64,000 bases of DNA from contig CM097883.1 in assembly GCA_044892505.1 (NCBI GenBank), positions 351,726,001 through 351,790,000 of the forward strand, given 5' to 3'. Numbering within the stretch: the first letter of the stretch is position 1; the number at the start of each line of letters is the position of its first letter. Below, one piece after another: positions 48,779-64,000 of this stretch. Source of the DNA: Schmidtea nova (taxonomy: Eukaryota). The position numbers were made by a program, and so were the translations under genes. The notes below the pieces were generated by a model. It had not been told where the DNA came from. It searched no databases and saw only the letters and a program-made list of their open reading frames with translations.

Positions 48779-51700
48779 TTATTCGGCTCTCAACTCGAAA
48801 TCGTCGTATAATCTCGGCTTCACATTTCTATTGTGTCTTTTCGGGTATCTTCCTGTGGTCTCTTTATTCTCTTCCGTTGACGTTGCTTCGTTAACCTCTT
48901 CCAATCTCTCCGATTCCTTTGTTCTTGACCATATACTTGTTCCCCAACTGTCCGTCTCTATCTTTGCTATTTCTGATCTTTCTGGGATAATCTTAATCTG
49001 GTTAAAATTACGCTGTATTATCTTCCCATCAGCCTCGCTTCTTAATTTAAAAGTCCAATCATTTACTTTCTCCAGTATTTCATATGGGCCGCAGTATTTC
49101 TCCCCAAATCCTTGTTTCTGAACTACTTTTACTAATGCCGAATCTCCTATTTTGACGTCTTTATTCCATCTATTTCGATTGTAAATCTTTTCGTTATATA
49201 CTCTCACTTTATCAGTTCTCTTTTTTACTTCCTCTTCTATGTTCGTTAACTCTGTTCTCAGTTTTCTCATGAATTCTCCGTAGTCTTGTGGTCCTATTAT
49301 GTCGCTTGTTTCTTCTCTTACTTTTGGTGTTCTGCCGAACATTAATTCTATCGGTTTATATCCAGTACTTTTATGGACTGTGTTCCTTACTCCATATTCT
49401 ACCGTGTGTACTGTTGAATCCCATTCCTTCGTCTTCCTGTCGAACATGGTCGCTGCCATCATACTTTTTGCTGTTTGGAACATTCTTTCGATTAAGCCGT
49501 CAGATTGTGGGTAGTACGGTGATGTACAGGTTTTCTTTGTTCCTATCAGACTGCACAAACCCTTAAACATATTTGACTCAAAATTCTTTCCCTGATCTGA
49601 GTGAATCCTTTCTGGTATACCGAATTTTGTGATCCATTCTTCCCATATTGCTCTAGCCACTGCTTCTGTCGTAATTTCTGGGAGTGGTATTAGACATGGA
49701 TATTTTGTGAAGTAGTCAATTAATCCCAGAATGTATCTATTTCCTTTTCTTGTAATTGGAAAAGGTCCGGTAATGTCTATTCCCAAAATTTCTAAAGGTC
49801 TACTGCTTATAAAACTCTGTAGTGGTGCTCTAACTCTTCCGTTTATATACTTGTTGTGTTGACAGGCTATACATCGGTTTACTCTATCTATAACGTTCTC
49901 GTTGATATTTGGCCAATAGTATCTTTCTTTGGCTGCTCTCGTAGTTCTTTCAATGCCAACATGTCCCAATTCCCGATGTAACTCGTCAATATATCTATTT
50001 CTTTCTTCTTCTGGTAGTATTTTCCTATGTCCTTCTGCTTTCTTAATCTTAAGATTTCCTTCACTGACATACATAAGCTCCGCTTTTCTCCATAGTTCTA
50101 AGTTTTTCCGGTTTTGTTCTTTTCTCCCTTGCTGTATCCAATCGATTATTTGCCTAACTTCTGAATCCGTCTTCGTATTTATCTGACATATAATTCTTTC
50201 TGACTTGTTCTCTTCTGTAGAAGTGTTTTCTTCCTCGTAAACTTTTACATTTCGTTTCTTTCTTGGGTCCGCGTGTTTCAGTCGGCATTGTTCGCATGGT
50301 GTAATTCTTGACAATGCATCCGCATTGCAATGGTCTTTCCCTTTTCTAAATTCCACTTTCATGTCATATATTTCTAGCTCTGCTTTCCATACACAATATT
50401 GAGAGGTGTTTGGGCTACTCCAATCTAATAACCATTTAAGTGCTTGATGATCTGTTCTTACTGTGAACTTTTTACCTACTAAATAATACTTGTATTTTAA
50501 TACAAATGTATAAATTGCCAAAAGTTCCTTGCGTGTGATACAGTATTTCCTCTGCGTTTTCGTCATAGTCTTCGATCCATACGCAATAACTCTCTCCTTC
50601 CCATCTTGGATTTGAGACAGGACGGCCCCTATTGAATCGTTAGACGCGTCTGTGTCTAAAACGTAGTATCCATCTGTAGTTGGTAATGCTAATATTGGCG
50701 GTGATAGTAAAGCCTGTCTTAATCTCTCGAACGATCCTTGTCTTTCCTCCGTCCATTCAAATTTGTTTTCTGTTCGAAGCATTTCGTTTAAAGGTTCTGT
50801 CGTCTTAGCGTAGCCTTTAATGAAGTTTCTGTAATATCCCGTCATCCCTAAAAATGTCCTTAACTCTTTCTGACACATTGGCTTCTTATATTCTCTTATC
50901 GCTTTGGTTTTGTCTGGGTCCGTCTGTACTCCTTCTTCGTTTATAATGTGTCCCAAATATCTTACCTCGTTTTTTAGCAAGTGGCATTTCTCCGGTGATA
51001 ATTTTAGTCCCGCTTCTCTCATCTTTTGTAGTACTCTATCTAATATTTCGTTGTGCTCTTCAATTGTTTTTCCGAATACCAGAATATCGTCCAAATATAT
51101 CACACAGTTAGTCCAGTTCTCTCCTCTTAAGACTACGTTCATTATTCTTTGAAATGTTGCTTGTGCGGCACACAATCCGAATGGCATTCTTGTGAACTCG
51201 TATTGGCCAAATCTCGTGCTGAATGCTGTTTTCCTTATATCCTCTTCTGCGATTGGAATTTGATAGTATCCACTGGACATATCTAATGTGGAAAAGAATT
51301 TCGCGTTTCCGATCGTATCAAAGACTTCGTTTGCTGATGGTATTGGAAATATTGCTCTTTCTGTTTTTGCATTTAAAGCTCTGTAGTCGATGCACATTCT
51401 CATATCCCCATTCTTTTTTTTTTGTTACCACTATGGGAAAGTTCCATGGTGAATTGCTTTCTCTAATAATTCCCGCTTCTTCCAATTCTGTAATGTATCT
51501 TCTCACATCTTCCTCCAATCCCCTTGGTATCCTTCTATGTTTGAATGCTATCGGTGTTGTTTTCCCCGTTTCTATAGTGTGTTGTCCCACATTTGTCTTT
51601 CCAATATCCATTTTGTAACTACTGAATACATCTTTGTTCCGCCATAAAATTTGTGAAATCTTCTGTTTTTCTGTTATTGTTAATCTATCGTCTAGTTTGT

Positions 51701-52148
51701 TTATCAACCCTTTCACAATTTTGTCTATACTTCTCTTTTCTTTGTTTTGGTCGATTGTTGACAATTTCATCAATGTGTTATTTTTTCCCTCTTTGTCCGT
51801 CCATTCTTCCACTTCTCCCAGTGTTGTTCCTGTATGTAGACTTTTCACTCCTCCTTCCTGCATATTAATTCGGACCCAAATCAATCCCTCGGAACATGTT
51901 GCTAGTCCATCTGCTACCAGTATACCTCTTTCCTCCATCTTGTTCTTGTTTCCTGTAAATAAACAATTAGTTACGTCTTCCTTTATCCTTTCGTTCTCCT
52001 TATCTACTATCATCCCTTTGATCCAATACTCTCCCTCTCCTTTCAATGTCACATTTTCTGCTACCACTACTTTTCTCGTTTCTTCTTCCGTCCCTTTAAC
52101 TATTCTTCCCACTCCTGGACGCCTGGGAGTGGTCTTTAACAGTTTAAA
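48779..52148 (-). CDS. pol: Gypsy Pol (linker, RT, RNase H, integrase); one extra A in an A10 run at ~51414-51423 splits it
   Basis: SPWNFP, DYRALN, MPFGL, YLDD, DTDASN, TDHQAL, ADALSR, HRELGH..CIACQ, GIDITGP, HSDQGKNFES, PQSDGLIER, GPY. Confidence 0.92.
52089..52148 (-). promoter_or_regulatory. Predicted -1 ribosomal frameshift signal (U UUA AAC + H-type pseudoknot)
   Basis: Heptamer 52148-52142 is in phase with ORF1; 9-nt spacer; stem1 CCACUCC/GGAGUGG; stem2 CGUCC/GGACG; next ORF is in the -1 frame. Confidence 0.75.
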
Positions 52149-53773
52149 GACGATGGTATCGATGTCTTGGATAGAAATGGAATTTGAATACCCTTTACCT
52201 CGATACAGTCTTCTGCCGGTTTCATTATTACTCCCAGTTCTTTCATGCATCTGAGTCCGATATACGCATGTGGGAATACCCCGTTTATTATTTCGAATTT
52301 GTGTTTGGTCGTCCTTGGACCCAAACTCAGTGACAATACTAATTGTCCTCGGCTTTTTCCTTTACTTCCATCTGCGTACGCTACTCTAACGTTTGAATCC
52401 CTGACTTCTATTGTCGAATCTCGTTGTATTATTTTCTCTGCCAGTTCCTCACTAATGACATTCAGATCTGCTCCCGTATCGAATAGTGCTTTAACTTCTT
52501 CTCCTTGGATTTTGCAACAAATGATTGGCTTGTTGGTTGCCCTTTCCGATCGTCTTTGCGATATTACTGTTGTGGCTTTTTTTATATATTTTTCCTTTGG
52601 TTTGTCGCCATTACCTCCGATAAACTGTGCCCACTTCTCTTCCATTGTTAGCTTACTTTTCTTTGTCTTTTTTACTTTTTGTGTAATCGCTTTCATAATT
52701 CGTTCTGATGGGTCGTCTTCTTCGTATTCGCTATCTGAACTTGTCCCTTGTACGGATACTTCTTCTAATTGTCGTACTCTTCTATAATCGTCCCTCTTGT
52801 TTGGGCATTCTCTACTTATATGACCCTTTCTATTACAATTAAAACATGTTACCTTTTCTCGATACTCTCGGCAATTGCTCGATATATGTCCTGTTTTCTT
52901 GCATCGGAAGCATCTTTCGTTCTTCTTTTCTTCGCAGAAACGTGCAATATGACCGGTTTTGCCGCAATTGTAACATTCCACTTGTTGTCCATTGTGGAAT
53001 TCTTTTCTACTTCTATCTTGGTTATTCGGTTCTTTTAAACTTTTTATAATTTCCTGAAGTCTCTTAATCTCTTCTCTTAATTCTTGTAACTCCAATGTGG
53101 CATTTTTATCTACCCGCATTTGCCTAGCATTGTTGTTTCCTTTCGCTTTATTAATTCCTTTCCCGTCTCTCCATGCATTATAGCTCTCTTCTCGTAGTTG
53201 TGATAATCTGTATTCTGGAATTATTTCTTTCTGGTCATCTTCTTCCTTTATTAGTTCGACAGCTTCTTCTATGGTTTTGGGCCGCAATATTTTCAATGTC
53301 TTTCTCATGATTTCACTTTTTAAACCTTCTCTAAAGATCATTAATTCTATTCTGTTTCGATCTTCTTTTGTGTCTTTCGTCGTTCTTTTTACCCGTCTAC
53401 TGAAATCTACTATCGTCTCTCCTTCGTCCTGTTTGGTCGATAGAAAAATTCTAACCTTCTTGGCTCTTGACTCCTTTATTGGGAACATTTCTGTTAATGT
53501 TTTTGTGTACCACTCTACTGAGTTGTTTTCTTCTCCATACGTACTTTTTGATTCCACCTCGAATAAGATTTCTGGATCAAAATATCTTCTTAATAATCGG
53601 ACTTTGTAAGCCTCTTCCATCTCAAACATCGCCAAAAAGGATGTTATATTCTCGAGATGTGTCCTCACATCCCTTTTACACTTCCTTGTGTATAGATATA
53701 GGGATCCCTCTATCTCTTGTGCCAATAAATTTTTGACAAAAGAATTGTCAAACGTAACTGCTCGTGACGCCAT
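52136..53773 (-). CDS. gag: Gypsy Gag-protease polyprotein (3 CCHC knuckles, aspartic protease)
   Basis: CYNCGKTGHIARFC, CFRCKKTGHISSNC, CFNCNRKGHISREC; ALFDTGADLNVI; 545-aa open frame. Confidence 0.92.
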   Translation of the reverse strand: MASRAVTFDNSFVKNLLAQEIEGSLYLYTRKCKRDVRTHLENITSFLAMFEMEEAYKVRLLRRYFDPEILFEVESKSTYGEENNSVEWYTKTLTEMFPIKESRAKKVRIFLSTKQDEGETIVDFSRRVKRTTKDTKEDRNRIELMIFREGLKSEIMRKTLKILRPKTIEEAVELIKEEDDQKEIIPEYRLSQLREESYNAWRDGKGINKAKGNNNARQMRVDKNATLELQELREEIKRLQEIIKSLKEPNNQDRSRKEFHNGQQVECYNCGKTGHIARFCEEKKNERCFRCKKTGHISSNCREYREKVTCFNCNRKGHISRECPNKRDDYRRVRQLEEVSVQGTSSDSEYEEDDPSERIMKAITQKVKKTKKSKLTMEEKWAQFIGGNGDKPKEKYIKKATTVISQRRSERATNKPIICCKIQGEEVKALFDTGADLNVISEELAEKIIQRDSTIEVRDSNVRVAYADGSKGKSRGQLVLSLSLGPRTTKHKFEIINGVFPHAYIGLRCMKELGVIMKPAEDCIEVKGIQIPFLSKTSIPSSLNC

Positions 53774-54929
53774 GTTATATCTCTAAATGAATTAACTAAT
53801 TTATATAAATAAATTACCACGATTCGGAAAAAATAATTCTAATAATAAATCAATAAATTACAATATTCAAAAATCTCTATTTTACAACACAATATTCAAA
53901 CAATATTCTAATAATTATAATATTAAACGAATTTGTAATATTATTAATTCACATATAACAAGAGACATTATTATTTAAGGATTCATTATTAATTTTATTG
54001 TTATTATTTAAGGATACATTATTTATTTGATTGTTTTCAACAAAATTATTGTGTTCAGTATTGTTGATGTAATTTGGATATAAACTATTAAATAGTGATT
54101 TTTTAAAGGTTTATATTGGGTCAGATGGGTCTTGTGGCTATAAAAAATTCGTTATAAGCTATATTTTTATTAATTTTACAAGTAGGGCAGAGGAGGTGAG
54201 TGACACAATTTTATTTATAGGAATAGTAGTTTTCCATAATGACATGGCAGTCATTAAGTAAACTACTATTACAAAAAAATTTTATATATCGAGCCTGAAT
54301 AAATTAAATAATTTAATAAACAAATACATGATATAATAAAATAAATATATATCATTTTAAAATAATTAAATTTATCTTCATAAAATATGACAAATAATTT
54401 TTGAATCACAATTTACATAATAATAATAAATGTTCATAAAGATTTCCATTATAATTTATTAATAAAGATTTTCCTAAAACTTTTCATAATAAATATACCA
54501 TTTATAATTCGCAATAAAGAATTTGATAAAATTATTCGTTATAAATATTCATAAAATCATTCGGTATAAATATTCCTAAAATTTTCCATGTTAATCTATT
54601 CTCAAAGTAATTTCGTCATAAAACTTTTATTAATAATACATATTCCTAAAAGTTTACATAAAACCATAAAAAGAAATAGGTTATCAACATAATCTTTATC
54701 ATATATTTACAACATAGATTTTTTCGTCATAAAATAATATATTTTCATTAAAATATTTTCTTAAATTATTTTCATCATAGAATATATTTTTAATAACTAA
54801 AATACTTTCCTCGCAATATTAGTTATAAAAATAATATTTTTTAATATCCATAAACCTTTTATGAACTGTTTATCTTTAACATAATATGTAATGGTTCAAC
54901 AAACAATTACTTATTAGTATATTCGGAAA

Positions 54930-56090
54930 GTAACAAATCAATTTATTGTGCTCCTTGTCGATTGTTAGGAGGTGGTGGATAGGCCCTGGCAACAACAGGT
55001 TATTCTGATTAGAAAAATGTAACAGAATGTTTATCTCAGCACGAAAATACATCACAACACAGACAGTTAGAAACAGTTCTAAAGCAGCGATTATTAGGAG
55101 ACTCTGCGTCAAATGTGAATGAACTATTAAATTCAGAAACTCTAAAGGAAAAAAATACCATCTTGTACCTGTGTTAACATAGCGCCAACTGCGACGTCGG
55201 ACGCATCTGTGGTTAGACTTAAGGGCAGAGAATACTTTGGATAAGCCAAAGTCTGAATTGATTCAAGTGCTTTTTTAGCTTCGATGAACGCAGCGTCAGA
55301 TTTCTCTGTCTAATTTATAATAGATCGCTTTGATCCCGAATGAGCGAAGTCAAAGGAGCAAGAATATCAGATATCCTAAGTATGAACCTGTGGCAATAAT
55401 TGACTACGCCTATAAAGCTGCGAAGCTGCGTGACAGTTTTTTGTTTTAGAAAAATTTCTGATGGAATTTAAACTTTCAGTTTGTGGATCTATTCCATCAG
55501 CGGATAAGGTGTGTCCCAGAAATTTTACACTTGATTGAAAGAATTGACATTTGGAACGATTTATCTTGAGTTGATGTCGCTCTAAGATTTTAACGAGTTT
55601 ATGTGTTTCGGCATCAAGCGATGCGACTAGGATGTCGTCGACGTAGGCTGCTACATAATCTAGTCCGGATAATATGTGATCGATGTGTCGCTGGAATGTT
55701 TGTGCAGCGTTCCGCAAACCAAAAGGAATTCGCAGGATTTTGAAGAGACCTATAGAAGTGATGACAACTGTTTTTGCACATCGGATAGAGTGACAGGAAT
55801 TAAGTGGTATGTCTTCGCCAGATCGATTGTAGAGAATATTTCGTTACCTATGAATCTGGCTAACGAATCCTTTATAAGAGGCGTTGTATATGATTCGTGG
55901 TGTGTGGTGGTATTTAAACGACGGTAGTCGCCACATATCTTGAAAGAACCGTCTTTCTTAGGGACGAAATGGATCGGAGAGGCCCAATGCGAAGAAGATC
56001 TTTGGATCACTTCTACTTGTAATATTCTGTTTTCAGAAATGTCAATTTTTCTCCGGAGATCGGGCGCAATCTCTCTCTGAGAGGTGGTGA
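54930..56090 (-). mobile_element. Decayed Gypsy RT/RNase H remnant
   Basis: WASPIHFVPKKDG...CGDYRRLN, FGLRNAAQTFQR, YVDDIL, TTDASDVAVGA. Confidence 0.88.
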
Positions 56091-56397
56091 ATTCAGAGTA
56101 AGGATTTGATGATAGAATAAAATAAATTTAACAACAAGAAAAGTATATTTTTTAAACTTCAGTATATTTTAAACAAACGTATTTTTCTCAACAGTTTTTA
56201 ATAAACTATTTCTCTAAAAGTTTTATTTTCTTTTCTTCTTTATTTATATAACGAAATATAATACAACTAATATAATATAAATATTACATTTAGTAATATA
56301 TAAATTGTATCACCACAATACATTTTGGGCAAAGGTAATCTTGTCCTTCATACTATTCCAATCGATCATAAATACCAGCCCAGAATGGTAAATCTGT

Positions 56398-56667
56398 TTA
56401 AATATAACACTTTGGTTTAAAAATATTACTGACATTCATTATACATAATTCTTTAATAATTGTTCCTCCAATTTTATTATAACCGTAAATTGATTTACAA
56501 AATTGATCTTGAATAATTCCATGTTCATCATCCGCACCCCTATACCAATAAATTTTATTAAACTTTGACTTGAATAATTTTGACTGTAGCAATTTACAAA
56601 CAAATAATGTTTTTTCATTCCCGCTAGGGCCAACAATTTGAAACCTTGCATCATTTCTTAATTCCAT
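56398..56667 (-). pseudogene. Polinton A32-like packaging ATPase N-terminal remnant
   Basis: MELRNDARFQIVGPSGNEKTLFVCKLL...KIYWYRG; degenerate Walker A (GPSGSGKT-like); truncated. Confidence 0.72.
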
Positions 56668-56758
56668 ATTTCTATTTTTATTAATTTATTAATATTGTTT
56701 ATATTTGTTTTAAATAATAATTTTCATTACCATTATCCTATTTAAAAAATTCCCATTA

Positions 56759-57184
56759 ATGATTAGCAACATAAATTATAAGGGTAAGACTGATGCATCT
56801 CACATGAATTTTCCAAAGGGCAAACCTCATCAAATCATTGATAGAAGTGGGAAATATCCGATAATATATTTTAAGGCCGCGAGATTTAGAATTGTGGGAT
56901 GTAAGCAATTTATTAGCGATGAAAAAGTAAAGATTTATGGTTTAACAATTCAATCGATTACTGTAACGGCAAACTTGGGATTTGATTGTAAATTAAATGA
57001 TTTGGCTAAATTAATAGAATGTGTTTACTAACCAGAATTATTTCGAGTTTTGAGATATATAAAATATAACCCCATGTGTGTAAATATATTTTCAAGTGGT
57101 AAAGTAGTTATATTAGTTTTAAAAAATAGGTACTATTTAAATATAGCTGATAATATTATTAATGATGTAAAATTAATTATTTAA
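56759..57184 (+). pseudogene. Divergent TATA-binding-protein (TBP)-like gene, one premature stop
   Basis: Reading through TAA at 57029: IQSITVTANLG...Y*PELFRVLRYIKYNPMCVNIFSSGKVVIL (cf. TBP YEPELFPGLIYRM..P..VLLIFVSGKVVL); weaker first repeat YPIIYFKAARFRIVGCK. Confidence 0.72.
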
Positions 57185-57410: not shown

Positions 57411-58701
57411 TCAACTTAAGTGAAATATAGTAGTTTTTAATTTATTATTTTTCATTATAATAATATCTATTTTTAAGATAAATTGATGTCCGTAGTTCAC
57501 TAGACTGTTCCACCGTGTCTTTGTATCTAAAATTAAAACCTTATCTTCCTGTTGACAGCTTTCTCTAATATACATTTGCAAAATACTGTCATTCTTTGTT
57601 GGCGAATTTCTAAAGATTTTAACGATTTTGCGTATTTTAGTCCGAATAGGTTTAGCAGCGTTACATATGTCTAAGTCTAACCCATTAGGGATTCCTTCAT
57701 CCAAATCACTTTCAGCAGTATCGTTAAGTTCCAATTCATCTTCGCTTCCAAGATTATTTGAGTCCGATCTATATGCTTCTATTTCATCGTTTTGAGTATT
57801 CTTGGGTACTCTTTGGTTTGAGTATTTATTTTTTTATAAAGTATATCTATTACTGCTAATTGTATGTCATGAGCAAAACATAGCTTTTGGTAGTTGGATA
57901 CTAATGAACCTACCTTCAACATCACTCTAGCACCATCCGTAGTCATGCAAACGATGTTTTTTTCTAAATTAATATTGAAATCCTGGAGTTTAGTTTTTAC
58001 TATTATGTTACATTTTTCCGCAGGCATGCTTCCATGAATCCTTACCATCCCTAAACTACAATATTTCGTTTCAGTTATCTTAGGTTCAACAGCGTAATGA
58101 ATATTAATATTAATGTAACGACGGTTTCGTTTTGAAGTCCACTCATCAAATGTAATGCTTACTCCTCCTACTTGTAGTATGGATTTAAGTTCCTTAATCA
58201 AGTTATATTTTATTTTCTCGTAATAACCAACTACAATACTGCGTATTGTGTGAGGTGACTTAGGAATATTTTCGAAACCTCTTGCTGTGAGGGATTTTCT
58301 TAGATCATATGATGAGCAAAATATTCTAAAAGGAAGTCCATCTACTGATGTCAAACGCGCAAGAACAGCAGGTATTGTGTTGTCAATTTTAATCTTTGCC
58401 GTTAGATATGATGTAATTTTCCTTTTGGTATCGCTAATATCTACTCTTTTTAACTGATTTTCCTCGTCTGTTTGTTGATCTAAAATTAATGTTCTCTTCT
58501 GACAATCAATTTTATGTATTTTATTCAAGTGCGTATATGCAGTCCTTTGGTAGACCCCCCAGCTATTTTTAGTATACTCGGACACAACTTACATCTAGCG
58601 GTTTTAGGAGTACTTCCTTGTTCTCGCAAAAAATGTTTCTAAATCGCGGATTCGCTTTCTTATTCCCACTCAATGTATTTTGTAGCTGATTTCGATGCCA
58701 T
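57411..58701 (-). pseudogene. hAT-family transposase pseudogene (BED finger + catalytic region, C-terminus lost)
   Basis: AI*KHFLRE...ARCKLC...HLNKIH; ITFDEWTS; TTDGARVM; CFAHDIQLAV; TRWNS. Confidence 0.88.
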
Positions 58702-59010: not shown

Positions 59011-59718
59011 TGTTGGGGTTAGTATAAAAATCACAAAAGTAACAAGAAATATCAAAATTAATTAAAATGCAAAAATTAATTAAAATTTATCAAAAATGTA
59101 AAATTAATATTCACTGGGGGAAATGGGTATGGTTGAATACCAAATCAAAAGACGAACCCAAAAATAATAATAGAAATTTAATAAGGGGTCCCTAGAAAAT
59201 GTTATTTAATAAAAACAAACTAATGAAAATTAATTAATCGCTCAGTGGGAAACCCGAGACAATGGGAAGCCCGAGGCAATGGGAAACCCGAGCGATGAGG
59301 GAAGCCCGAGCGCAAAGAGACCCGAGAGATCAAAGTCGGGGCAATTAGGAAAAATCCATCCGAGGATATCGATTAAACCTAATTGTTATTTGCGAGAACT
59401 ATAAAAGGCAGCGCAAAACAGATGACGGGGCCGACGAGTTGATAGTTAAAAAAGAGAGCATTAAAAAGATTTGAAAACAAATAAGGAAAGATCCTGAAGA
59501 AATCAAACAGACAAAGTGAGAAAGTATCCTTTTAACTAAAGAGTCAAATCCGAATCCAGCAGAAAGCGTAATTGACCAAAAGCGTGTATTACAAAGATTG
59601 TAATTTGTGTTGATCGTGAATAAAAAGATTGTTCTGTGTTGGGTTCATTGATTTCGATAATTAAAGAGCACGAGGAGTCAGGTCAGTAAACCGATCTAAC
59701 CAGAAAAATAAGCCAACA
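59011..59718 (+). mobile_element. 5' LTR (708 bp) of a large Gypsy-like element continuing beyond the window
   Basis: tgttgg...ccaaca termini, followed by a PBS and gag. Confidence 0.85.
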
Positions 59719-59721
59719 TTT

Positions 59722-59739
59722 TGGTGAGCCCGACGTGAT
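59722..59739 (+). promoter_or_regulatory. Primer-binding site (tRNA-Trp type)
   Basis: TGGTGAGCCCGACGTGAT; 17/18 match to the recalled complement of metazoan tRNA-Trp 3' end (TGGTGACCCCGACGTGAT). Confidence 0.8.
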
Positions 59740-60307: not shown

Positions 60308-62446
60308 ATGGCTAGTAATTCAAATAATAATGATCAAATACCCATGTCTACTACTCCCACAAACAATGGTAGTGATTTTGCAAGCTGTCAGAAATTGCCA
60401 GTAGAGCAATACGGAGGAGACCCAATTGATTTTGTTGATTTCATGGCAGATTACTATATGTACGCGACAGCATACGGATGGAGCCAATCAATTATGGTAC
60501 AAAGGTTACCGGTATATTTGAAAGGTGCAGCACGAGAAGCTTGGCAACAGATCGACAAAAGACTTATCGCAAATGATTGGACAAAGCTAAAAGATGCATT
60601 GGCAGCCAAGTTAATTGGTGGCGATATCAAAAGAATAATGCGCCAAAAATTTTACAACCGAGTACAAAAGTCAAATGAATCGGTAAGTGAGTTTGCTTAT
60701 CATTTAACAACTCTTGCAGAAAAAGCCTTTGAAGCGAAACCAGAACAACCTGATGTGACGAAACAAGTGAAAGAATTACTTCAAGATCAATTTCTGTCAG
60801 GAGTAAAAAGAGAGATCAAAAAAGCCCTGTGTTATGTAGATTTCAACAATTTCGATGAATTGATTAAAAAGGCCATGAAGATTGAATTGAATCTCAAAAC
60901 CACACAACAGACAGCCGAATCCTTTGCAATTGTAAATGAAACGAGAGATGAATCAGTAACTCCAGTTAGAGAGACTCTTTTGCAAAAATCAACAAGTCCA
61001 TCACCAAAGTTTAGAGTGAAATTCGAGCCAAGAAAGTCGTCAAACAGCCCAAATGAAGAAAGAGAAAGGCCAATTCAATGTAGTTATTGTAAAAGATTGG
61101 GACATCAAGTAAATCAATGTTGGTTTAAAAACAGCGCTCGAAGAAGCCCAAGTCCTGTTCAGTGTGATAATTGCCAACGAAAAGGGCACAGTAATAGTCA
61201 ATGTTGGTTTAAAAATAATTCGCAACGGAGTCCAAGAAAGATGTGGCCAGATTGGTTGAAAGACAATGTCGAGAAAACCTTCAAGAGAAGGGGCAACATT
61301 GATCAAAGAGCTAGTGATAATATGCAGTGCTATAATTGTGGAAGGAAAGGCCATACTTCACGAAATTGCTTTGCAAGATCGAGATCTCCGTCAACATCAC
61401 CATCACCACAGAGAGATAGAGTAAATCTCCAAGGACAAATTCAATGCCACTCATGCAGAGGAAATGGACACATGGCTAGATCATGCCCAAAGAATAATGA
61501 AAAATTTCAAAGACCTATATTAAAGAAAATCAGATTTCAAAATGATAAATCAAAATTTGATAATGTGGCTTTTGTACAACCCGATGATGCTAACGAAAGA
61601 ATTGAAAAAGAGATAAAGCAAATGGGTAAACGATTGGATAAATTAATGTGTAAATTTGAATCGGACGAAGAAACTGATAACCATATGATGTATGAAACGC
61701 AATCAGAAGGGTCAGAGACAGATATAATGAAGGAAGTAGTAAATGATGAATTAGAAACCGAAAAAATAAAAATGATTTTGTCGAGAACAAAAATTTTAAT
61801 GGAGTCAAAAGTAAAAGAGACGTCAAAAATAATGACAATGCTAAAGAAATTGAGTCAAATGCCGATGAGTATACAAAATTTAAAAAGTGTAATTGAAATT
61901 TGTGCTGAATATCACAATGAGAATTCAAAAGATAAAACTGAAACTGAGAAAATAATGAAAATATTTGGAAAATTGTTCAGAGAGAAAACATGGTTAGATT
62001 TTATTGTTATTGATGTTGTTGATGAAAGTAATAATGATGTGATGTGCATTCGTTGTGAAATAGGAGAGTGCGTAAAGGAATTTAAAAAGAGATTAGAGGA
62101 AAATAGTGGAAAATGGATAAAGGAAGTAAAATTTAAAAATAGATGTTTAAATGACGAGGAAATATTAATAGATTGTGGTATTACACCTGAAAATAAAAAC
62201 AGAGTACAGATAGTATTTATGATTAGAAATAATGAAATAATAAAAGATTATTCACAGAAAATTTGTAGGGAATTAAAAGATATTTTGTGTAAAGGGGATG
62301 CAAATGAAATTATTAGAAAATTAAAATTGATAGAAGAAATTGAAATTGAGAGAGATATTAAATTAGATATTATAGATGCAATAAGGCCACACATGTATGA
62401 AAAATCTAAATATAAAGAAAATTTAAGAAATTTAGTACGACGATAA
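60308..62446 (+). CDS. gag: Retrotransposon Gag with 4 CCHC knuckles and a C-terminal extension containing a ubiquitin-like domain
   Basis: YGGDPIDF..F...Y...ATAYGW...LPVYLKGAAREAW; QKSNESVSEFAYHL; four CX2CX4HX4C; open from 60146, first ATG at 60308. Confidence 0.88.
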   Translation: MASNSNNNDQIPMSTTPTNNGSDFASCQKLPVEQYGGDPIDFVDFMADYYMYATAYGWSQSIMVQRLPVYLKGAAREAWQQIDKRLIANDWTKLKDALAAKLIGGDIKRIMRQKFYNRVQKSNESVSEFAYHLTTLAEKAFEAKPEQPDVTKQVKELLQDQFLSGVKREIKKALCYVDFNNFDELIKKAMKIELNLKTTQQTAESFAIVNETRDESVTPVRETLLQKSTSPSPKFRVKFEPRKSSNSPNEERERPIQCSYCKRLGHQVNQCWFKNSARRSPSPVQCDNCQRKGHSNSQCWFKNNSQRSPRKMWPDWLKDNVEKTFKRRGNIDQRASDNMQCYNCGRKGHTSRNCFARSRSPSTSPSPQRDRVNLQGQIQCHSCRGNGHMARSCPKNNEKFQRPILKKIRFQNDKSKFDNVAFVQPDDANERIEKEIKQMGKRLDKLMCKFESDEETDNHMMYETQSEGSETDIMKEVVNDELETEKIKMILSRTKILMESKVKETSKIMTMLKKLSQMPMSIQNLKSVIEICAEYHNENSKDKTETEKIMKIFGKLFREKTWLDFIVIDVVDESNNDVMCIRCEIGECVKEFKKRLEENSGKWIKEVKFKNRCLNDEEILIDCGITPENKNRVQIVFMIRNNEIIKDYSQKICRELKDILCKGDANEIIRKLKLIEEIEIERDIKLDIIDAIRPHMYEKSKYKENLRNLVRR

Positions 62447-64000
62447 GCAAAGAACTTAGAAAGACTACAATTGAATTGAATCCGTTTACAATAGCATTAG
62501 ATTACGAAGATTATGGTAAAACTGAATATATAGTAGAGCATTGGTGCACAAAAGTTCGGAAATTAAGAAAAAGAGCTGCTGAAAGAATAGGAAAAGATGG
62601 AATTATTATATTTATGTTTAAAAGAGAAAAATTAGATGATGATGAATATTTATTTGATTTTGGATTTGTTCCACAAGAGTTAGATGAAAATGGATATTTA
62701 CGTTTCGATAGTAGAAATGGATATTTGATAAATTGTGTATCGGTGATTAAGGAACAGAAATTTGAATTAATAGACAAATCTGATGGATCAAATACAGACA
62801 GAGAAAATGATGATGAAAATGAGGTTAAAGAAGATAAAGAGATAAACGAAATGGTAAATGATAACGAGGAAACCAAGCAGAATAATAAAGATGAGTATAA
62901 AGTAACAAAAATAGAGGAATTTGAGGAACTTAAAGGCGAAATGAATAATGAAAGTAATATTAAGAAGCCTAGAACCTTATATGAAATAAAGAAAGGTTTA
63001 GTGCGATTGGAACAAGAAGTAGATAAAACCAAAGCATTATTAAAAAGCTTGACTAAAGCAGTATACCCAATGTGTGAAATTGAGATAGATGGAAAATATG
63101 AATTGGGAGGAATAGTAAATGAAGTGAGAAACAGACTCCCTAGCATCATGCGAAGGTTTGGTAAAAATGAAAAATTTTGTGACAAAGATGTAATCGAGAA
63201 ATTAACTAAAAATGGAATTACTACAGAAGTAACATTAATGAGCTTAACTTATGTAATTTTAGAAATTGGTGCTCATAAGATCATGAAATCAGATGAGTTA
63301 GAAAATTTAATAGATACTGCTGCTCGAAATATAAACGAATACTTAATGAGCTGGGTTAAAAAGATTGGAGGTTGGGACAAGTTGATGAAAATGTTTATAA
63401 TAAATGAAAACGAAAGTAATGAAGAAAGTTTACCTCAACAATCGCTAAATGTCAGAGTTAGTCCAGAAAAGAGGAAGACAATACTGTTTCCTTGGGCAAT
63501 CTTTATGATAATTATTTTGTGTGCTGGAATCACACAGGTAACGAGTATGACAACGTATGACTGTTCAAAAACAGAAATGGGGAAAATTTATTCAGTTGTA
63601 GATATGTCAGAGTGTTCAGACGCATATCCAAGAAAATTAAAGATAGAAAATGATGTGAAATATCATGTATATCAAGAATCTGATTTACGACGAACAACGG
63701 TAAGAGAATGTATAGTTAAGCGCACTTCCTTTATATTTTATTGTGGCAAGTGGAGCCATACTTCAATGATAAAAATGTATACAATCCTACGGCCAGTAGA
63801 GGTAATGCCGGAAAATTGCCTCGCTGCTTTTCAAACAGGAGAATTAAAAATAAATTCGGAAATTAAATTAAAAGCAAAGCGAAATCATAGAATTAGAGAA
63901 ACAGTGGTCGTAAAAGGAGTAATGAAACAAGATGGAGATTGTGAAGGAGAACCATACAAAGTAGATGGGAAGATAATCAAACAGTCTGTAGTAATAGAGG
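62416..64000 (+). CDS. ORF2 (runs off the window; absent from the ORF track): Ubl - acidic/coiled-coil - Bcl-2-like - hydrophobic signal/anchor - chuvirus-like glycoprotein
   Basis: Manual translation is stop-free from 62416 to 64000, in the -1 frame relative to gag; WVKKIGGWDKL; FPWAIFMIIILCAGI; YDCS...ECIVKRTSFIFYCGKWSHTS...CLAAFQTGEL...GDCEGEPY. Confidence 0.85.

Follow-up and report, generated by a model that had tools for sequence, protein, structure and literature searches.

The window analysed here is a 64,000-nucleotide stretch of the Schmidtea nova genome (contig C2, 351,726,001-351,790,000, of a 1.25 Gb, AT-rich assembly), and near its end an LTR retroelement carries a sequence reminiscent of Bcl-2 proteins immediately ahead of a viral-type glycoprotein. 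The locus raises three questions: whether this sequence is a genuine Bcl-2-like domain, how its product would be placed relative to the membrane that the glycoprotein enters, and what such a domain might do for the element. The features are collected in Table 1.

Table 1. Features of the retroelement. Positions up to 64,000 are those of the window.
Feature	Position	Strand	Basis
5′ LTR (TG...CA)	59011..59718	+	self-match
Likely primer-binding site	59719..59739	+	immediately 3′ of LTR; sequence and self-match
Gag: Retrotrans_gag and CCHC zinc knuckles	60308..61500	+	Pfam PF03732 (E 3.6e-7), PF00098 (E 1.4e-9)
Ubiquitin-like (Ubl) domain 1	61991..62230	+	profile, AF2 model, Foldseek
Frameshift zone, copy-specific, making the apparent ORF1/ORF2 split	62400..62500 (near 62,440)	+	sister-locus comparison
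Likely ubiquitin-like (Ubl) domain 2	62470..62727	+	alignment with domain 1, 24% identity
Bcl-2-fold domain	62977..63405	+	retroelement-only profile, AF2 model, Foldseek, VIA-align
Six predicted helices	62,977-63,063; 63,112-63,159; 63,184-63,207; 63,223-63,285; 63,298-63,363; 63,370-63,390	+	AF2
BH1 position: TTEV (NWGR in Bcl-xL)	63220..63231	+	register from HMMER alignment
BH2 motif WVKKIGGW	63,352-63,375	+	sequence, sister loci
Predicted internal Env signal peptide; candidate tether of upstream product	63478..63546	+	KD 2.31, Hessa sum -1.0
Env start, Monjiviricetes-type fusion glycoprotein	63547..64000, on past window end	+	Pfam PF24664
3′ LTR	74,625-75,330 (extended coordinates, past window end)		self-match of extended sequence

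Structure of the element and its reading frame

The element is a compact Burro-like Ty3/gypsy LTR retroelement with the Pol order PR-RT-RH-IN, present in hundreds of copies in the genome and about 16.3 kb long from LTR to LTR when the sequence is read past the window. Its 5′ and 3′ LTRs differ by 12 mismatches in 704 aligned bases, TATA stands at both outer ends, and partial repeats of the likely primer-binding site run on by self-match to about 59,910.

The preliminary description placed the Bcl-2-like domain in a separate second open reading frame, ORF2. A search by protein for sister copies gave 2,625 first-look candidates, 150 of which were scored; these matches are 92-100% identical, and a stop falls within the matched stretch in four of them. 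Around 21 of the 150 listed matches, by hand count, there are open frames of at least 3,400 aa (the longest 3,442 aa). Since these sister copies have one open frame of such length, the family has a single polyprotein and ORF2 is a product of decay, created by a frameshift that sets the window copy apart from 28 of 29 sister loci. The window copy has a second frameshift at about 68,170-68,214 (extended coordinates) and six in-frame stops, after 64,419, 66,174, 67,503, 68,902, 69,391 and 69,616; broken in this way, it would not make the polyprotein. Another apparent frameshift near 62,830 was dismissed because the sequence there is in frame in 28 of 29 sisters. The forward-strand frame at 62,416-64,419 holds the Bcl-2-like peptides, the hydrophobic run and the start of Env.

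The family frame of about 3,440 aa has the order Gag-Ubl-Ubl-Bcl2-Env-PR-RT-RH-IN, followed by a second membrane protein. Gag is its N-terminal start, with a start ATG inferred from the sequence. Ubl domain 1 was assigned from a profile of seven element segments, which matches ISG15/NEDD8 at E 1.4e-6, and from an AF2 model (pLDDT 80) that Foldseek matches to SUMO1 and ubiquitin (E 5e-5, TM 0.7-0.8); single-sequence PDB searches with both Ubl segments returned nothing relevant. The likely second domain matches Pfam ubiquitin at E 0.12 in a sister copy, and in the window copy has no match of its own in single-sequence PDB and Pfam searches. The PF24664 matches of Env have E 3.8e-22 in the window frame and 7e-24 and 2.6e-58 in the extended sequence, where RVP, RVT_1, RT_RNaseH and rve (Pfam) follow as Pol. 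The PR-RT spacer of about 100 aa, the place of a dUTPase-like domain in Burro, is without a Pfam match at E <= 2; the Burro assignment used HHpred.

After the integrase, a second signal-like hydrophobic run is followed by an ectodomain and a strong membrane helix (L012:1242-2456, extended about 69,240-70,456), a layout common to a sister family and to the giant relative described below. A fibronectin type III fold in this protein is hinted at weakly by Pfam (E 0.18, in the sister family), with no PDB match. Further on lies a broken ORF without a Pfam match (L012:3082-4247, extended 71,082-72,247), the FIDAEYG motif of which presumably recalls a DEDD exonuclease. Other decayed gypsy-like Gag/PR/RT pieces were recognised by their motifs at 51,318-53,782 and 55,376-56,127 on the reverse strand, at about 42,980 on the forward strand and at about 33,580 on the reverse strand. 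Just upstream of the 5′ LTR, 57,411-58,588 (reverse strand) and 56,398-57,031 hold what we take to be transposase-like fragments and a P-loop ATPase-like fragment, the latter presumably reminiscent of Polinton packaging ATPases.

Identity and predicted fold of the Bcl-2-like domain

Judged by profile and by predicted fold, the Bcl-2-like domain is real and its match lies beyond chance. The single window sequence is marginal: it scores 13.6 bits (E 0.1) with Pfam Bcl-2 (PF00452), below the curated cut-off of 31.4, and its best PDB match, again to Bcl-2 at E 0.1, covers the BH2 region. Pfam lists Bcl-2 for all 13 element segments scanned, with E <= 1e-3 in six and a score above the cut-off in one (32.8 bits), and a host-free profile of 22 retroelement rows matches Bcl-xL at E 2.4e-6. 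The AF2 model computed from a retroelement-only alignment (pLDDT 87.4, pTM 0.83) has six helices, with a short helix 2-4 region in which a separate α3 is not predicted.

Every top row shown by Foldseek against the PDB belongs to the Bcl-2 family (best E 2.5e-3, TM about 0.55; none at E <= 0.001); against viral structures none reaches E <= 0.001, and nine of the ten top rows are named as Bcl-2-like or herpesvirus proteins. VIA-align superposes 129 residues of the model on Hydra Bcl-2-4 (6wgz) with an rmsd of 2.8 Å and Z 13.0, a value near which helical bundles can come through their common arrangement. Chance likeness is unlikely here because ranks 1-36 are Bcl-2-fold proteins and unrelated rows begin only at Z 4.9, and because the sequence match is independent. 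The preliminary description, which proposed such a structural check, had aligned part of 63090..63545 by eye with α5-α8 of Bcl-2: the fold stands, while the start has to be moved upstream, to about 62,977-63,013, and the helices number six.

The predicted bundle matches cellular and viral Bcl-2 proteins (Hydra Bcl-2-4, Bak 2jcn, canarypox CNP058, ASFV A179L, BHRF1 and KsBcl-2) at Z 10.7-13.0, and like them the element has the BH2 pattern W-x4-GGW and a hydrophobic segment after the domain. It differs from them in that NWGR is replaced by TTEV, the separate α3 is lacking from the prediction, the domain lies inside a polyprotein, and the hydrophobic segment, which resembles a cleavable signal, precedes some 540 lumenal Env residues. 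The poxvirus Bcl-2-fold inhibitors N1, A46, A52 and B14, which have non-apoptotic, NF-κB-related roles, resemble the element domain in having the fold without a canonical BH1 motif, but their structural match to it is much weaker (Z 5.0-6.7).

A word-indexed homologue search among longer proteins gave 651 candidates, none at E <= 0.01, and a full HMMER search found only three public proteins, all with the Bcl2-signal-Env layout. The genome searched with Pfam contains host Bcl-2 genes and other element families, some of them above the cut-off; a motif search shows the Bcl2-Env junction in 16 of the 20 regions from one search for further element families.

BH motifs

The strong BH2 match and the degenerate BH1 motif of the preliminary description are both borne out. 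Of the 30 sister loci with the best scores, a sample that favours conserved copies, 29 keep WVKKIGGW, and the full W-x4-GGW is present in 10 of 15 diverged element rows. At BH1, where the window has the peptide NGITTEV (63,211-63,231), the glycine is missing in 15 of 15 element rows, and R or K stands at the arginine position in seven of the 15 (none of the eight in the window's clade); among seven host rows, two have NWGR and six have W plus R/K. The sequence NWDR in one copy of a sister family was dismissed as a family feature, being found in 1 of 30 copies. At the BH3 place in helix 2, located by eye, the window has LGGIVNEV, without the G-D pair, and the sister family ISSLADNI. While the groove motif is lost, the α5 Tyr and the BH2 Trp and Gly are kept as core residues.

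In PMC9027176 and PMC5841437, the BH1 glycine and arginine are described as important for binding of BH3 or of Bax/Bak, and according to the latter the G145A substitution in Bcl-2 abolishes Bax/Bak binding. Because the glycine is missing in every row and the arginine has been lost in the window's family, canonical BH3 sequestration by the element domain is doubtful. These losses weigh directly on the model of the preliminary description, a classical viral Bcl-2 mimic in which a processed, tail-anchored domain would bind the BH3 of host Bak/Bax-like proteins and block apoptosis. The model gains from the fact that pro-survival Bcl-2 proteins and Bak have the nearest folds (Z 12-13), far ahead of the non-apoptotic poxvirus ones, from the basic residue kept at the BH1-arginine position in part of the rows, and from a host genome with Bcl-2-family genes, Bak-like exons among them by our own reading. 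PMC9027176 also credits ORFV125, a viral Bcl-2 with an altered BH1 (SPGR), with binding BH3 motifs, more weakly. Set against this, the one near-canonical BH1 of the sister family is a rarity among its copies, and the Env signal would imply targeting to the ER rather than to mitochondria. When the domain was modelled in complex with 34 residues of a host Bak-like BH3 region, the score was 0.00, without an alignment and with a poorly folded partner, and the model has no weight either way. We regard the mimic as unlikely.

The hydrophobic segment and the predicted Env signal

As the preliminary description noticed, one hydrophobic stretch with the anatomy of a signal peptide separates the domain from Env, and it does so in 15 of 15 rows, the distance from BH2 to the Env start being 45-70 residues. 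In the window the run TILFPWAIFMIIILCAGIT (63,478-63,534) is the 19-residue apolar run of a signal with a basic n-region and a predicted cleavage after VTS. By a rule of thumb applied to 15 rows that are related, small residues occupy -3/-1 of a site three residues before the Y/F-D-C start of Env in 14. The longest apolar run varies from 9 to 19 residues and the position-free Hessa sum from -1.8 to +7.6, with sums of +3.1 to +7.6 in five of the 15 rows; only the rows of the window's clade have a segment that convinces as a 19-residue membrane helix. The stretch looks like an internal cleavable signal peptide of Env, and the spread of Hessa sums is easier to reconcile with a signal that is discarded than with an anchor that is conserved. 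The segment of the window's clade may be hydrophobic enough to persist as a tether, a property that is not conserved more widely.

The proposal that signalase cleavage would free a vBcl-2-like protein is not supported for signal peptidase acting alone, since Gag and two Ubl domains precede the domain in one continuous frame. A second hydrophobic region at the end of Env would return Pol to the cytosol. Given this return and the in-frame fusion, what the signal peptidase cut would leave at the ER, facing the cytosol, is a Gag-Ubl-Ubl-Bcl2 product about 1,080 aa long. For the Bcl-2 module to become free, a further cleavage would be required, the simplest candidate for which is the protease of the element; no protease site that would free the domain was identified.

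The fixed place of the domain directly ahead of the Env signal, together with its production one-to-one with Gag and Env from a single frame, could also mean that the fold has been re-used structurally, as a spacer close to the membrane or a matrix-like module by which Gag is tethered to the ER beside Env during particle assembly. The loss of the groove motif with retention of core residues speaks for such a use as well. Its rate of evolution, described below, fits a host-facing accessory better, and among related elements the cargo includes further regulators of cell death and ubiquitin; a structural role seems quite unlikely.

Origin and selection

When 15 element rows and seven host rows are placed in one tree, the element rows fall on one side of a branch with a support of 89/90, not starred. 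The tree left out near-duplicate element loci (L096, L103, L142, L145, L149, L151, L152, L153, L158), motif-less regions (L144, L147, L156, L157) and host loci that were incomplete or contained stops. One capture of the domain is allowed by this tree, which points to no one donor. An RT tree of ten rows with a single outgroup gives the window's clade 95/99 and joins it with the giant relative at 92/91.

Exons that we read as host Bak-like (L171-L173 and L176, loci L049 and L051) include a BH3-like LASIADTL at L172:5395-5577, and there are at least seven further host exons of the Bcl-2 family.

The Bcl-2-like domain is under purifying selection. Pairwise Nei-Gojobori dN/dS values, several with dS near saturation, were 0.35, 0.26, 0.47, 0.26, 0.21, 1.04, 0.29, 0.24, not computable and 0.12 in the ten pairs, so that the test suggested in the preliminary description gives dN/dS < 0.5 in eight of nine computable pairs. 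The result argues against a passenger, that is, a domain captured once and kept only because frameshifts or stops in it would destroy Env and Pol. The frame would indeed have to stay open whatever the domain does, and the degenerate motifs and the one pair at 1.04 are what a passenger might look like; open frame by itself does not account for values of 0.12-0.47 in the other pairs, nor for a fold and a BH2 motif that persist in rows whose identity to the window sequence is only 17-52%. A passenger is very improbable.

Where frames are intact, Env and RT have dN/dS of 0.04-0.12; values from four pairs with frameshifted copies were discarded. In the four pairs that are in frame and computable, the domain (0.12-0.29) evolves several times faster than Env and RT (0.04-0.09), that is, faster than the structural genes among which the structural reading would place it. 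The signal is the same in two subfamilies, L140 and L150, and their Env sequences agree at 99%, but their Bcl-2 domains are only 76% identical (dS 0.51, against 0.06 in Env). This contrast suggests recombination just after the Bcl-2 domain, and such an apparent module swap likewise fits a host-facing accessory better than a structural part.

Relationship to Burro

Burro elements, also GYPSM1, are giant Ty3/gypsy LTR elements of planarians (Jurka 2007; Grohme et al. 2018; both via PMC6431247). The same source describes in them a BCL2-like motif, a Ubi2/SUMO-like domain ahead of it and an in-frame mononegavirus-like Env that separates BCL2 from the protease, and Arkhipova and Yushenova (2019) there suggest that Burro tinkers with host apoptosis. 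That planarian LTR elements contain a BCL2-like motif has therefore already been published, although the preliminary description knew of no Bcl-2 mimic from an LTR retroelement. Another source treats piRNA control of Burro (PMC8532177). For the Burro1 cargo B-IAP, a RING-BIR IAP, a protective effect on stem cells against apoptosis has been reported (Lee et al. 2026, Dev Cell; via PMC13465017). A literature search whose reach stopped short of the primary texts of Grohme et al. 2018 and Lee et al. 2026 found no paper testing the Burro BCL2-like domain or describing the signal-anchor arrangement.

Set beside Burro1-4 by published description rather than by direct sequence comparison, the window element is alike in its single polyprotein, Gag with CCHC, Ubl/SUMO-like and BCL2-like domains, mononegavirus-like Env, PR-RT-RH-IN and high copy number. 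In contrast to Burro (>30 kb, 4,873-5,140 aa), it measures 16.3 kb with about 3,440 aa, and BIR, MATH/TRAF, RING and ankyrin are without a match in its scanned frames. We class the element as a relative of Burro and not as one of Burro1-4: the cassette is alike, whereas size and cargo differ. With B-IAP it shares the situation of a host-derived apoptosis-regulator fold in a planarian LTR element; B-IAP is a RING-BIR IAP with a reported function, whereas the window cargo is a predicted Bcl-2 fold.

A giant relative in the same genome, a 26-kb LTR element (L166-L167 and L177, G000:C1:352,332,763-352,359,036), is the nearest thing to Burro1 seen there. Its broken frame of about 5,090 codons has Gag, Ubl-like, Bcl-2-like, Env, Pol and ankyrin repeats, with a RING ORF upstream and a TRAF-like ORF (RING, zf-TRAF, MATH) downstream. 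It has an alignable Bcl-2-like domain at the same place as the window element, assigned by alignment and tree; a Pfam scan of its 2,828-aa frame did not list Bcl-2. Elsewhere, a 399-aa BIR plus RING (IAP-like) ORF (L087-L089, G000:C1:253,263,001-253,289,118) accounts for most of the 150 listed BIR matches; in the single copy that was inspected, direct repeats of at least 3.8 kb flank it at a spacing of 22.3 kb.

Proposed role

The reading that we prefer, and to which we give about an even chance, is that the Bcl-2-fold domain of the Gag-Ubl-Bcl2-Env-Pol polyprotein is an ER-tethered, host-facing accessory that dampens death or stress signalling without the NWGR contact. The hydrophobic stretch would act as an internal signal peptide, sending Env into the ER lumen and being cut after VTS, while the upstream product would remain cytosolic, held for some time by the signal. 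The Env transmembrane segment would bring PR-RT-RH-IN back to the cytosol, where the element protease would free the Bcl-2 module from Gag. A single capture from a Bcl-2-family gene of the host would have given rise to the module, which would be kept as it favours the survival of cells expressing the element; this survival role is proposed by analogy with the Burro1 IAP cargo (PMC13465017).

A broader picture, which we consider rather unlikely as a whole, is of a planarian env-bearing clade with a flavivirus-like polyprotein that crosses the ER membrane repeatedly. In it the Env signal would tether the whole Gag precursor, and a captured Bcl-2 fold that has lost its BH3-binding motif would have found a new use close to the membrane, in assembly or in controlling the host by non-apoptotic means.

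To the BCL2-like motif already described in planarian elements, the present analysis adds a confident predicted fold, purifying selection, the loss of the BH1 glycine throughout the rows, and a Bcl2-signal-Env cassette kept over many diverged families, compact ones without other Burro cargo included. The element thereby offers a small domain for testing whether the Bcl-2 of a retroelement shields the cells of its host, in the way reported for the IAP of Burro1, or serves some other end.
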